Shown piece by piece: positions 17,561-30,248 of a DNA stretch of 47,711 nucleotides; within the stretch, counting starts at the first letter, position 1; each line of letters opens with the position of its first letter. The stretch covers positions 1-47,711 of the IMG/VR virus record IMGVR_UViG_3300036888_000141; one strand, given 5' to 3'. The position numbers and the translations under genes are program-made. The notes under the pieces are model-generated. The model ran no database searches, was not told where the DNA came from, and was given only the letters and a program-made list of their open reading frames with translations. Source of the DNA: a virus.

Positions 17561-17587
17561 ACTTCGTAATAGTTAGTTTAACGAAGT
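17561..17587. repeat. dif/lox-like site A
   Basis: ACTTCGTAATA-GTTAG-TTTAACGAAGT, 4 nt after the portal stop. Confidence 0.75.
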
Positions 17588-17651
17588 AGATTTAATAATC
17601 TTAAATTAAATTATTTTACCAAAGAAATTTTGTAATTATTTTAAAAATGTT

Positions 17652-18398
17652 TTATTGGGATAGTGAAGGAGAATGTTGAGCAGCTCGATGGAACAAAACA
17701 CTCAATAACAACCCATTAACTATCAATACTATCCAATTTATAGTGAGAATAGCTACTTCAAACGCTACAATATCATATTTCAACAAAGAAAGAATTGTAA
17801 AAAAGATGATTGCAATCAGGAAACCTGAAATGAAAATCCATCTTATTGCACGCTCGAGTCGTCCACCATTAAAAACAGCAGCCATGAAGAGGAAAGCCAC
17901 ACTCATCATTAAATATCCGAGGCCTTCAAGGGCAATGAATATTCCATGCGGATTATATTGCGTAAGCAATGATAAACCGGCTGTTTCACCATTTATGATG
18001 CTGGGAACGATCACAGTTAACTGAATAAAATAATCTATGAGTATCACCGTAGCGTAAATTAAAGCGAATGACAAACCAATCTGACTAAAAACTTTCTTAT
18101 CATCAGAGGAGTAATAATGAATACACACCATTAGCACTATGAATATCAGTGCTAATAGAATTCCCGGATAAATCCATAAGTAATCACCAGGAATAAAAGC
18201 AGCCACATTCGTATAGGGATAGTGAATAGCGTTAACAGCAGAGGTGGCGAAAGGTCCTGATCTCGCAGGGGTCAAGATACCAGCCAGGAGAAACACAACC
18301 GTAATTAAAACCGTCAGAACCGCTGAGAAGAATCCAAGCCGGCTCAATAACTGGTTAAAATTCGAATTATAGTCATCTTTAGAAGTAATTTTACTCAT
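17652..18398 (-). CDS. Multi-pass (about 7 TM) membrane protein, cargo
   Basis: Hydrophobic helices; opposite strand to core genes; AGGTGA RBS. Confidence 0.85.
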   Translation of the reverse strand: MSKITSKDDYNSNFNQLLSRLGFFSAVLTVLITVVFLLAGILTPARSGPFATSAVNAIHYPYTNVAAFIPGDYLWIYPGILLALIFIVLMVCIHYYSSDDKKVFSQIGLSFALIYATVILIDYFIQLTVIVPSIINGETAGLSLLTQYNPHGIFIALEGLGYLMMSVAFLFMAAVFNGGRLERAIRWIFISGFLIAIIFFTILSLLKYDIVAFEVAILTINWIVLIVNGLLLSVLFHRAAQHSPSLSQ

Positions 18399-18501
18399 TA
18401 AATCACCTATTCAAATATATTTTTAATGTTTTGGAAGTTATAGGTACGTATTTTTTGAATAAGTTAAGAATTATTGAATAAATATAATTTATGTAATACT
18501 T

Positions 18502-18933
18502 TTATTTTTGTTTACTAAGCCAAAAATCCTCTACAGATTTCACTATATTTTTGTATTCATTTATGCTATTTGGTTCGTTTAAAGAATGAATGGGACAGCT
18601 AAAATGTTTCTCAGCTTCTTCTTTAATGCCTAAATCCTTGGTTAAAAATAACACTGGTATACATTTTATACCCGCTTCTTTGGCAATCTCTTGTAATAAA
18701 TTCCAATCTTCCTTTCTAAAAGAATGAATATCAAATATTACAACATCTGGCCGTGGAATATCACTAAATACATTCATTTGAAACAGCATTTCTAATGCTT
18801 CATCTCCATTGCCTACAAAACGGAAATTATTGGGAATAGATGATTCTTTAAACAATAAACTGAACTCTTGCAAATCACCGGGATTGTTTTCAACCAACAA
18901 AATCTCAACAGGCTTAATCGTTTTCATTACCAT
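18502..18933 (-). CDS. Stand-alone response regulator receiver domain, cargo
   Basis: ILLVENNPGD...GDEALEML...PDVVIFDI...IPVLFLT. Confidence 0.85.
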   Translation of the reverse strand: MVMKTIKPVEILLVENNPGDLQEFSLLFKESSIPNNFRFVGNGDEALEMLFQMNVFSDIPRPDVVIFDIHSFRKEDWNLLQEIAKEAGIKCIPVLFLTKDLGIKEEAEKHFSCPIHSLNEPNSINEYKNIVKSVEDFWLSKQK

Positions 18934-19025
18934 CTTTTAACATCCATTCAATAGCGAAAATAAAAACCAGAAAATTTACCCCTATATGTATTATTCACTA
19001 TTTTCATAAATGATATCTAAATAAA

Positions 19026-19036
19026 ACTTCGTTAAT
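19026..19036. repeat. dif/lox-like half-site B
   Basis: ACTTCGTTAAT at the right edge of the cargo island; partner arm not recognisable. Confidence 0.45.
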
Positions 19037-19168
19037 ATTAATTATTTCATAAGATTTATAGATTATGGTACATTTAAAAAGGATAAATGAATTGTTTATA
19101 ATTATTTTTGATGATAGAATTTATTCTTATTTTTTCTACAATTATTTTAAATAAAAAGTTGATCAACC

Positions 19169-28380: not shown

Positions 28381-28420
28381 CCACCTTTGTAAAAGGTGGA
28401 TCAAAACCTTTTATTTTGAT
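28381..28420. repeat. Palindrome plus ATCAAAA element copy 2
   Basis: CCACCTTT-GTA-AAAGGTGG-ATCAAAA-CCTTTTA-TTTTGAT. Confidence 0.5.
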
Positions 28421-28598
28421 TTCATGAATAATTTTAAAATATTTAAAAATAAACCCATTTTATAGTCCATAATTTGAATCATTTAAATGCAATTATAGAA
28501 AAATAGAAGTAGAATGGTAGAAAGAATATATATTATATAAGTTATAATTTAGTTTGAAATCATGTTAATTTTTTTTTTATTATCTGAGTGGAGAAGAA

Positions 28599-29417
28599 AT
28601 GTCATTAGGAATTGTTGTTAAGGGTCCAGAAGGATTAGTACTTGCTGCTGAGAGCAGAATTACACTTACTGCAGATATGATCGATGGACAGAAAGTTATT
28701 GTCAATTTCGATAATGCAACTAAATTACTTTCTTTCAGTAAGCCTAATATTTCCGTAGGTGCAGTTACATATGGTTTAGCTTCTTTAGGTTTGAGAGCTG
28801 CTCATAGTTTCATACCGGAATTTGAAGCAAGTTTACCAAAAGAGAGATTATCAATTAAGGAATTTTCAAATGAGCTAAGTAAATTTTTTATGGATCAATG
28901 GAAAGAAGAAAAAATGCCTGATGTAAATGATTATAAAGGTCCAGATATGACATTTGTAGTTGCTGGTTTTGATGAAGATGACATATATGGAAGAGTATTT
29001 TTATTTGATATTCCACATAAACCAGATCCAGATGAAAAAAATCCAGATCCAACGGGTTTTGGGATTACTTGGGGAGGTCAACGTGAGTTTGTTGATCGCT
29101 TGCTACAGGGTTATGACCAAAGATTAATAGACTTCATAAAATCACAGGAAGAAATTTCTCCGGAATTGGATTTGTTATTAAAACAGTTGCAGATGCAAAT
29201 TCCTATTGGCGCAATGGCTTTACAGGATTGCGTTGATTTAGCAATTTTCTTTGTTAAAACCACAATAAATGCTCAAAATTTAACTGTGGGTGTGCGAGGT
29301 TGTGGTGGAGCTATAGATGTCGCTACAATCACTCGTAGGAAAAATTTGCAGTTCGTTCAACGAAAAAGTATAATAGGTGAAGATAAAGGTTTGAGGAGAG
29401 ATGAAATACATGTCTAA
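28599..29417 (+). CDS. Proteasome-beta/HslV-like Ntn hydrolase with N-terminal Ser, cargo
   Basis: (M)SLGIVVKGPEGLVLAAESRIT...ATKLL...VTYG...CGGAIDVATIT; Ser1/Glu17/Arg19 spacing matches Thr1/Asp17/Arg19. Confidence 0.7.
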   Translation: MSLGIVVKGPEGLVLAAESRITLTADMIDGQKVIVNFDNATKLLSFSKPNISVGAVTYGLASLGLRAAHSFIPEFEASLPKERLSIKEFSNELSKFFMDQWKEEKMPDVNDYKGPDMTFVVAGFDEDDIYGRVFLFDIPHKPDPDEKNPDPTGFGITWGGQREFVDRLLQGYDQRLIDFIKSQEEISPELDLLLKQLQMQIPIGAMALQDCVDLAIFFVKTTINAQNLTVGVRGCGGAIDVATITRRKNLQFVQRKSIIGEDKGLRRDEIHV

Positions 29418-29769
29418 AGGAAAAAAAACAGCATCTTTTGGTAAAAAAGATATTCCTAATATATCTGAATATAATTTGTCAGCAAATTATGAAGCGAAAA
29501 GTTGGTCTGAGATGTCAGCTGAATTTTCAATAATTATGTATGACACCGTTCCTGGCAGCATGGAACCTGTTGATATGCCTAGTGTAACTCTAGATTTAAG
29601 TAAGATTATTTCTATTAATTTATCTGTACAAAAAGATGTCTGCGATCATTGTGGTCTTCCCTTGGATTACCATGAATTACGTACTGATTTTATAGAGGAA
29701 ATTAAGAGAAAAGAAAAAAATAAGCTTATTCGGATAAAGGACATTAATAGTCGACTAGTTAATCATTAA
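29401..29769 (+). CDS. Putative antitoxin (C-terminus resembles DUF2683-type archaeal antitoxins)
   Basis: ELRTDFIEEIKRKEKNKLIRIKDI; directly upstream of a RelE-like gene; overlaps the protease stop. Confidence 0.55.
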   Translation: MKYMSKGKKTASFGKKDIPNISEYNLSANYEAKSWSEMSAEFSIIMYDTVPGSMEPVDMPSVTLDLSKIISINLSVQKDVCDHCGLPLDYHELRTDFIEEIKRKEKNKLIRIKDINSRLVNH

Positions 29770-29780
29770 ACTTCTTTTTT

Positions 29781-30077
29781 ATGTATAATATTGACTTTGA
29801 TCCAGAATTTGATGAATTTTTGGATGATTTAAGAAAAGATGATTCTAATATTCATGATACGATCATTAGAAAGATCATCGACATAGCGGAAACTCTAGAA
29901 TGGAGTGATAAACATTACAAAAATCTTGAGTATCCTTTGAATAAATTTAGAAGAGTTCATATAAACAAACACTTTGTACTTGTTTTTAGAGTTAATAATG
30001 ATGATCATGCAGTAGAATTCTTTGCATATGATCATCATGATAAAATTTATAAAAATAGCCGATTATTAAAATATTAA
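29781..30077 (+). CDS. RelE/YafQ-family toxin
   Basis: MYNIDFDPEF...HYKNLEYPLNKFRRVHINKHFVLVFRV...F..YDHHDKIY. Confidence 0.85.
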   Translation: MYNIDFDPEFDEFLDDLRKDDSNIHDTIIRKIIDIAETLEWSDKHYKNLEYPLNKFRRVHINKHFVLVFRVNNDDHAVEFFAYDHHDKIYKNSRLLKY

Positions 30078-30221
30078 AAAAAGTTAATTTTTTGAAAATT
30101 TTAAAGTTAAACTGTCAAGTTTCATGGATTTTTTTTTATTCAATCCTAATTTTGTTAATTTTTAACGTATGTTTTTTTAATTCTTTTTAGAATTGGAAAA
30201 AAAATATTTCTAGAACAACGT

Positions 30222-30248
30222 ACTTCGTTAAACGTTGGATGACGAAGT
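30222..30248. repeat. dif/lox-like site G
   Basis: ACTTCGTTAAA-CGTTG-GATGACGAAGT; TACTTCGTTAAAC is identical to site A read on the minus strand. Confidence 0.75.

Follow-up and report, generated by a model that had tools for sequence, protein, structure and literature searches.

The window analysed here, the whole 47,711-nucleotide stretch of virus record IMGVR_UViG_3300036888_000141, is a 47.7-kb provirus record with a G+C content of 34.5% and a methanogen host. Between its virion genes recur seven short elements, A to G, which belong to a family of lox/dif-like palindromes common to chromosomes of the Methanobacteriaceae and to their tailed viruses. The arms of these palindromes are individually conserved at a rigid spacing in the hosts, and in the provirus the elements are linked to the edges of cargo genes. 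A literature search found no paper containing the motif, and the family is apparently undescribed. The reading favoured here, at a probability of about 40%, is that the elements are recombinase-type target sites which mark old cargo junctions and have since largely decayed in the provirus. The key question is the identity of the protein that binds these candidate sites.

The original prediction, made from the letters of the window, had placed the seven elements at the borders of accessory islands that interrupt the head module, and every element is present at the position and with the sequence it described (Table 1). Their origin by chance is excluded. The pattern ACTTCGT-N13/14-ACGAAGT, with at most two mismatches, is found at four sites in the window against a mean of 0.16 in 300 dinucleotide shuffles, none of which reached four. 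The heptamer ACTTCGT occurs seven times on the plus strand where 1.0 copy is expected (0/300 shuffles reached seven), and all copies but one (6/7) lie between genes in the stretch from 17.5 to 30.3 kb. Scanned over the window, a matrix derived from 55 host sites detected no further 28-bp site. By arm type (TATAG or TAAAC), A/B and F/G are inverted pairs and E/F a direct pair, while D is symmetric and C collapsed.

The same palindrome is found well beyond this provirus. In the form ACTTCGTTATAG-N4-(C/G)T(A/T)TAACGAAGT, allowing one mismatch, it is present in one to eight copies in 26 of 41 evenly sampled Methanobacteriaceae genomes, whereas a reversed control pattern gave three matches in total in the same sample. 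The host-chromosome scan proposed with the prediction thus uncovered a broader distribution than had been known at that stage. A collection-wide scan matched at least 118 stretches, many of those listed being Methanobacteriaceae genomes, and the sites in these listed genomes form one homogeneous family, ACTTCGT-T-A-(T/A)-A-B-N4-...-ACGAAGT. Several tailed-virus contigs of Methanobacteriaceae also carry the motif. The 28-bp consensus, tttACTTCGTTATAG-N4-(C/G)T(A/T)TAACGAAGTaaa, can be read as 11-6-11 or as 12-4-12; with the interior left unconstrained, the host heptamers are nearly always exactly 14 bp apart (N14). From the scan, 64 host-type sites were picked by motif type and a G+C content below 0.41, a few of them possibly in bacterial bins. 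Clearly intergenic positions, mostly hundreds of bases from gene starts, account for 58 of the 64, and the rest overlap only short crude open reading frame calls. The flanking genes are convergent at 13, tandem at 21 and divergent at 5 host sites (n = 39), and the motif is flanked by T-rich DNA on its 5′ side and A-rich DNA on its 3′ side. Owing to this flank composition, and to the 13 of 39 sites between convergent genes, an intrinsic terminator or a typical promoter operator is a poor fit. Some sites are kept, spacer included, between two genomes that are ~70% identical in nucleotide sequence where aligned and that are taken to be Methanosphaera species, one being an M. stadtmanae assembly; such sites are therefore maintained and are not random scars. 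The window holds seven sites in 13 kb, versus about one per 300-500 kb in hosts.

Substitutions in the arms of host sites are single-sided, with no compensating change in the other arm, and those of site F are not compensatory either. When folded as RNA, B, E and F do no better than shuffled sequences, and C reaches z = -3.9. A search of the window against Rfam returned a tRNA as the only match, and no T-run follows the stem, the T-rich flank preceding the palindrome and the A-rich one following it. Judged from these sequence features, namely strict N14 spacing in hosts, uncompensated arm changes and degenerate copies that fold like shuffles, the element has the hallmarks of a site in duplex DNA whose arms are recognised one by one by a dimeric protein, and not those of an RNA hairpin. 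A role as a nucleic-acid hairpin is accordingly rated very unlikely, whether as an mRNA stem-loop acting in processing, stability or translational coupling or as a single-stranded DNA substrate of an HUH or integron-like enzyme. It would suit the viral loops, which vary from 4 to 6 nt while the stems stay, the perfect small hairpin at C with its extended flanking symmetry, and the sites of a second virus, G006, that lie between a stop codon and the next ribosome-binding site. Besides the folds and the Rfam result, it has to contend with the rigid host spacing and with conservation, over many family genomes and viruses, of the stem sequence itself and not of mere pairing. Readings as an intrinsic terminator, a promoter or an Rfam RNA were rejected on site placement, the Rfam search, the folds and flank composition.

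The architecture is of the tyrosine-recombinase type, as had been claimed from the 11-6-11 arrangement and the loxP outer heptamer with N14. The outer ACTTCGT and ACGAAGT heptamers and their 14-bp separation are identical to those of loxP, and natural and synthetic lox sites are matched by the same search pattern. Likeness to Cre/loxP extends to the A/T-rich inner arm and a footprint of ~34 bp including flanks. The differences are an inner arm of TTATAG or TTAAAC in place of ATA plus an 8-bp spacer, the lack of a Cre-like gene beside the sites, and the occurrence of several copies per genome with unrelated spacers. Two loxPsym-like copies 150 bp apart in a public genome assembly (L093, 384-561) look like engineered DNA or contamination, not a natural site. 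In archaeal XerA/dif systems the site is likewise an 11-6-11 imperfect palindrome in intergenic DNA (PMC2958812; PMC8371274), and the layout seen here is that of archaeal dif (PMC8371274). The host copies have the 28-bp 11-6-11 form of dif; A and G are 27 bp long. Site-rich genomes carry a strong XerA-type gene (157-169 bits). A serine recombinase acting on a res/hix-type 12-4-12 site was rejected as the partner, as PF00239 has no match in the site-rich G000, G001, G002, G003 and G006, control genomes being positive.

In the favoured reading, a dimeric protein encoded by the host would recognise the sites in duplex DNA, one subunit per arm. A Xer/Cre-type tyrosine recombinase is proposed for this role because of the outer heptamer and N14 spacing of loxP and of an A/T-rich inner arm such as dif and lox sites have. 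The viral sites would be junctions at which accessory modules entered or were swapped between virion genes, and the moving unit would probably be a gene plus its site. Most copies in the provirus appear decayed (one is a half-site, one has collapsed, some have 27-bp spacing and the spacers are unequal) and would therefore record past events, not current shuffling.

On comparison with relatives of ~80-89% identity (G115:C43, L227, L228 and L229), three slots in the head module emerge as real cargo hotspots, and the intervals between sites are, as predicted, true insertions relative to related viruses. In the slot between portal and MuF-like genes, the window has site A, two minus-strand genes and the half-site B. 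G115:C43, whose portal is 89% identical, has at this place a 41-aa zinc-ribbon mini-gene, a 27-bp site orthologous to A (21/27 identical) and 0.5 kb of unrelated DNA, and the stop codon of the mini-gene lies inside the site. This mini-gene, with a CxxCxGxG motif, is found between portal and site at 2910-3045 of L226 (G115:C43, reverse complement); the palindrome opens with the last codons and stop of this gene (ACT TCG TAA), and small cysteine-rich genes of the G006 array end likewise. L228 has a good site followed by three other genes, and the L229 contig begins at a site that is followed by a 79-aa gene; both portals are off the contig, the slot being assigned from the downstream MuF-like gene. 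Homology with L229 resumes ~44 nt to the right of B.

In the second slot, between the MuF-like and scaffold genes, the window has C, an adhesin-like gene and D, and the left breakpoint of this island lies within 6 nt of the start of C in comparisons with L228, L229 and G115. The third slot, between the 179-aa head gene and the 197-aa core gene, holds E, F, G and a histone gene in 4.2 kb, and its left breakpoint at E relative to L228 and L227 is 26491. Copy 2 of this slot in L227 has a degenerate site 16 nt past the junction, followed by other cargo, and L229 has a half-site at the left edge of different cargo. Full or half sites at the left cargo edge are thus found in 3/3 occupied versions of the post-head slot and in neither of the two empty ones. 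In two of the three slots the relatives do differ in the cargo lying rightward of a conserved site, as expected if breakpoints fall at the sites; the expectation fails at some islands and edges that lack a site. In L227 (37-8932) the block of scaffold, capsid, 102-aa and 179-aa genes occurs twice in tandem, at ~80% identity to the window and with differing downstream junctions, an arrangement that may stem from true duplication or from two related viruses having been assembled into a chimera.

Contig ends also coincide with the sites more often than expected, a suggestive point in favour of recombination, and some contigs end inside a site. In the near-identical set, 4 of ~36 lie within 20 nt of a site, against ~0.8 by chance, an estimate that takes the sites with their 20-nt margins as ~2.3% of the region. 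The first base of two contigs falls precisely on the border between arm and spacer, the position at which cleavage by a tyrosine recombinase would be expected. Contig L156 begins exactly at the right arm of D. Several host contigs end at sites as well. These ends could reflect population heterogeneity or an assembly artefact at palindromes. An apparent inversion between L037 and L055 was rejected, as paralogous kinases explain it better.

Several cargo genes have relatives in host chromosomes. The 248-aa gene of the A-B interval has a 74% homologue in a host genome, and none of 10 host loci with its homologues carries a site; for the double-zinc-ribbon protein of E-F, a site lies within 1.5 kb at 2/9 host loci. 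The F-G cassette of 272-aa, 122-aa and ParE-like genes recurs in host chromosome G160 at 67%, 40% and 54% identity, preceded at a distance of 228 nt by a left half-site and followed, 27 nt past the stop, by a full site, mirroring F and G. No orthologue of this locus was found in relatives of G160. A comparison of the G003 and G010 locus gave one site at a synteny break, at ~70% identity and too diverged to interpret. Taken together, 3 of 31 host loci with cargo homologues carry a site, an enrichment over the ~0.25 expected if about five sites per 2.3-Mb genome and a 3.6-kb window are assumed. A 351-bp histone segment (30265-30615), which begins 17 nt past G, is 84% identical to a segment of L227 that occupies a different slot, after the equivalent of window position 32514; the histone gene is therefore itself mobile cargo.

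This arrangement recalls the pdif modules of Acinetobacter plasmids (XerC/XerD), in which 28-bp 11-6-11 sites also flank small modules, including toxin-antitoxin modules, with no dedicated recombinase nearby, so that a housekeeping Xer would act in trans. A possible further likeness, seen for one module, is its presence with sites in different contexts, here the virus and G160. Unlike pdif modules, the sites described here belong to an archaeal host and are carried in the head module of a tailed virus, their orientation does not alternate regularly, their spacers are not conserved, and many modules miss one or both sites. The motif is also absent from some XerA genomes, and a chromosomal dif of the same sequence was not identified. 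A trans-acting exchange shared by Methanobacteriaceae and their tailed viruses, in which a housekeeping or other candidate tyrosine recombinase would move gene-plus-site units between host chromosomes and defined viral slots, is considered doubtful. Such an exchange would be the equivalent in archaea of pdif modules or integrons, working without an integrase of its own at the locus.

Another dense set of sites is found in virus G006, where six of seven lie in a 3.5-kb block of tiny, packed, co-directional genes and every site in the block abuts a stop codon, with the following ribosome-binding site coming after it. Small genes with a palindrome of recombination-site type directly at each stop resemble an integron, as does the variation of cargo in a given slot between relatives. 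Integron attC sites differ in being 55-140 bp long with extrahelical bases (R''-L''...L'-R'), whereas these are simple palindromes of 26-28 bp, and neither IntI nor attI accompanies them (PF00589 has no match in either the window or G006). Those reported from archaea use canonical attC sites (PMC9668308). Most of the site and small-gene array of G006 (L128) is bracketed by two copies of a ~190-bp direct repeat (4040-4240 and 7025-7220) that ends in a tRNA-like T-arm, GGTTCGATTCC. ARAGORN called no tRNA on these repeats, which could be an att-like duplication or a novel small RNA.

A number of observations weigh against target sites of a recombinase. The central spacers of the window sites are all different (E and F agree at 4/6 positions), the spacers within each host genome all differ as well, and the viral sites range from 26 to 28 bp, some of them collapsed. 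A tyrosine recombinase is expected to tolerate neither differing central regions nor length variation of 26-28 bp. Active recombinase-driven cassette shuffling has left no sign in the data, and no rearrangement separates the near-identical proviral contigs, which number more than 30, come from different samples and are strictly collinear. The proposed cassette system finds partial support in one cassette with the same flanking sites in a host chromosome, and the differing spacers and the unrearranged proviruses speak against it. Contrary to the prediction that empty slots would keep a single site, three empty slots in relatives have none, namely the MuF-scaffold slot of G115 and the post-head slot (~45-55 nt) of L228 and of L227 copy 1. 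Insertion and excision site by site is disfavoured, because it should leave one site in an empty slot. Occupied slots without sites are also seen: between MuF-like and scaffold genes, L228 has another 179-aa gene and L229 two glycosyltransferases. The right breakpoint of the C-D island lies at ~21916-21985, ~310 nt beyond D, and the AAT island between terminase and portal (14.4-16.0 kb), which is absent from G115, has no sites. The intervals between sites do hold non-structural genes, as claimed, but the right accessory region extends past G to the histone gene, which has no site on its far (right) side. In host chromosomes, 28 of the 31 loci with cargo homologues are free of sites.

The search for an enzyme gives further points on the same side. 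No recombinase gene recurs beside host sites, and G006, which is 99% complete, has no integrase in a PF00589 search despite its seven sites. G013 and G014 carry XerA (165-171 bits) yet have no site at up to two mismatches. Host XerA, one of the two enzymes first proposed, is present in site-rich genomes and also in genomes without the motif. Given XerA genomes that lack the motif, copy numbers of 0-8 and the absence of a conserved spacer, the motif cannot simply be equated with the host dif, which is a single copy near the terminus and would be expected wherever Xer is present. An integrase had been suspected outside the window and does exist just beyond its edge, as a 377-aa tyrosine integrase that stops ~1.3 kb before the window start; the window itself has no match to PF00589. 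In the left flank (L190 5882-8125, outside the window) the order is host genes, tRNA-Thr(cgt), an Apyc1-like gene and this integrase. Because it adjoins tRNA-Thr, a classic attachment point, the proviral integrase is unlikely to act on the palindromic sites. tRNA genes are the usual attachment points of integrases. A right-end repeat (attR) matching the tRNA-Thr attachment was searched for and not located. The Apyc1-like gene is a metallo-beta-lactamase-fold gene that matches the anti-Pycsar Apyc1 family. For two integrase-bearing elements next to weak sites of G001, a search for direct repeats (att) gave low-complexity matches only. A 2.9-kb excised circle of M. smithii (PMC12134362) is unrelated, its borders lying inside genes.

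The main rival explanation, somewhat less probable than recombination, is that the palindrome is bound by a dimeric transcription factor, from the host or widely shared among viruses, and acts as a roadblock or boundary element, with no recombination involved. Such an operator or insulator would keep the silent late operon apart from the accessory genes that the lysogen expresses; in hosts it would control a small regulon, and the sites would move along with the accessory genes as part of their own control elements. A count of about 5-10 sites in each host genome suits a regulon, and the recurring neighbours of host sites are PAS sensor kinases and double-zinc-ribbon proteins. The early block of G006, with sites in nearly every junction directly before ribosome-binding sites, is in keeping with this view, as are the presence of sites only where there is cargo and the stability of the provirus. 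A variable spacer sequence would leave a transcription factor unharmed, but spacing variants of 26-27 bp should harm a dimeric factor just as they would a recombinase. Host sites are moreover far from start codons, often near 3′ ends or between convergent genes, a 7-bp block at a loxP-like 21 bp centre to centre is unusual for helix-turn-helix operators, and no candidate regulator was identified. The nearest viral parallel is the stoperators of cluster A mycobacteriophages, which are likewise many copies of a short site in short intergenic gaps of a temperate virus, often touching stops. Stoperators differ in being 13-14 bp, asymmetric, oriented with transcription and bound by a phage repressor, whereas the motif here is a 28-bp palindrome that host chromosomes also carry.

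A third explanation, regarded as improbable, is that the palindrome functions only in host chromosomes and that the viral copies are hitch-hiking relics without a viral role, decaying in islands that were captured illegitimately at permissive junctions. The viral copies are indeed more degenerate (27-bp, half, collapsed and four-mismatch forms) than the 28-bp host copies, empty slots are without sites, and the cargo has host homologues at up to the 74% identity noted above. Relics would, in contrast, be expected at random in the interior of captured DNA, and the sites lie at the very edge of islands, 4 nt past core-gene stops. Site A is kept in the relative with the 89%-identical portal though the DNA on both sides differs, the ten site-free host loci of the 248-aa homologues indicate that A and B did not simply come with DNA from a donor of this kind, and the density of sites in the window far exceeds that in hosts.

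Table 1. Sites A-G, cargo and core genes of the provirus, with positions in the window. Distances given for D to G run from a stop codon to the start of the site.
Feature	Coordinates	Strand	Description
405-aa acyl-CoA:6-APA acyltransferase / choloylglycine-hydrolase gene	14664-15881	-	Peptidase C45-like; between terminase and portal
Portal gene (core)	16033..17556	+	PF04860; portals in relatives; left neighbour of site A
Site A	17561..17587	.	27 bp, ACTTCGTAATA-GTTAG-TTTAACGAAGT; perfect outer heptamers; 4 nt past portal stop
A-B cargo	17652..18933	-	248 aa and 143 aa; absent from G115, L228 and L229
Site B	19026..19053	.	Left arm ACTTCGTTAAT alone intact, right arm decayed; 143 nt upstream of MuF-like start
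MuF-like head-morphogenesis gene (core)	19169..20179	+	Homologues in four related viruses; between B and C
Site C	20184..20202	.	Collapsed palindrome ACTTCGT-ACATG-ACGAATT; 4 nt past MuF-like stop; extra flanking symmetry
C-D cargo	20366..21394	+	342-aa PMP-repeat adhesin-like protein
Site D	21586..21613	.	28 bp, ACTTCGTAATA-TGGCAA-TATAACGAAGA; in 640-nt non-coding gap; 191 nt; 31.9 bits
Core head block	22032..26458	+	791-aa scaffold/protease-like, major capsid protein (378 aa), 102 aa, 179 aa; SU10_MCP in relatives
Site E	26554..26581	.	28 bp; 95 nt (stop of 179-aa head gene); 29.1 bits
E-F cargo	26826..28296	+	105 aa, 233-aa double-zinc-ribbon protein, 124-aa DUF5518 protein
Site F	28349..28376	.	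Degenerate 28 bp, 4 mismatches, CGTTCGGTATA-GCACGA-TTTAACGGAGT; between two cargo modules; 52 nt; 17.5 bits
F-G cargo	28599..30077	+	272 aa, 122 aa, 98-aa ParE-like toxin
Site G	30222..30248	.	27 bp; inverted relative to A, E and F; between ParE-like and histone genes; 144 nt
Archaeal histone-fold gene (accessory, outside G)	30300..30509	-	PF00808, E = 3e-17
197-aa gene (core)	30643..31236	+	In relatives; right neighbour of E-G accessory region

The genes around the sites are those of a tailed virus, with terminase-like, portal, MuF-like, scaffold/protease-like, major capsid and tail genes in the window. The terminase-like gene is homologous to those of related viruses, and the MuF-like gene has no Pfam match and is named from its homologues and position. 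The core head block is collinear with L227, L228 and L229, and distant relatives have a compact block of portal, ~515-aa and capsid genes. Copies of the provirus that are 98-100% identical occur in long contigs from many peat metagenomes. A repeat of ~127-150 nt with 83-84% identity lies at 21808-21956, upstream of the scaffold gene, and at 32548-32671, upstream of the gene at 32832; relatives have it too, conserved as far as the cargo junction, and it is a possible late promoter or regulatory element. The early region has an HNH endonuclease gene with AP2 DNA-binding domains (2091-2807, plus strand) and a tRNA-Thr(tgt) gene is found at 3322-3394. A second HNH/AP2 gene lies past the right end of the provirus (L194 17911-18546).

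The Methanobacteriaceae include the dominant methanogens of guts, peat and digesters, and their viruses take up host-like genes, such as those for adhesins, toxin-antitoxin pairs, membrane proteins and histones. A lox/dif-like site conserved in both hosts and viruses would offer a mechanism, open to test, for this gene traffic. Identification of the partner enzyme would also furnish methanogens, for which genetic tools are scarce, with a natural means of site-specific recombination. Should the palindrome prove to be an operator instead, it would still define a regulon or insulator system, hitherto overlooked, that viruses have adopted.

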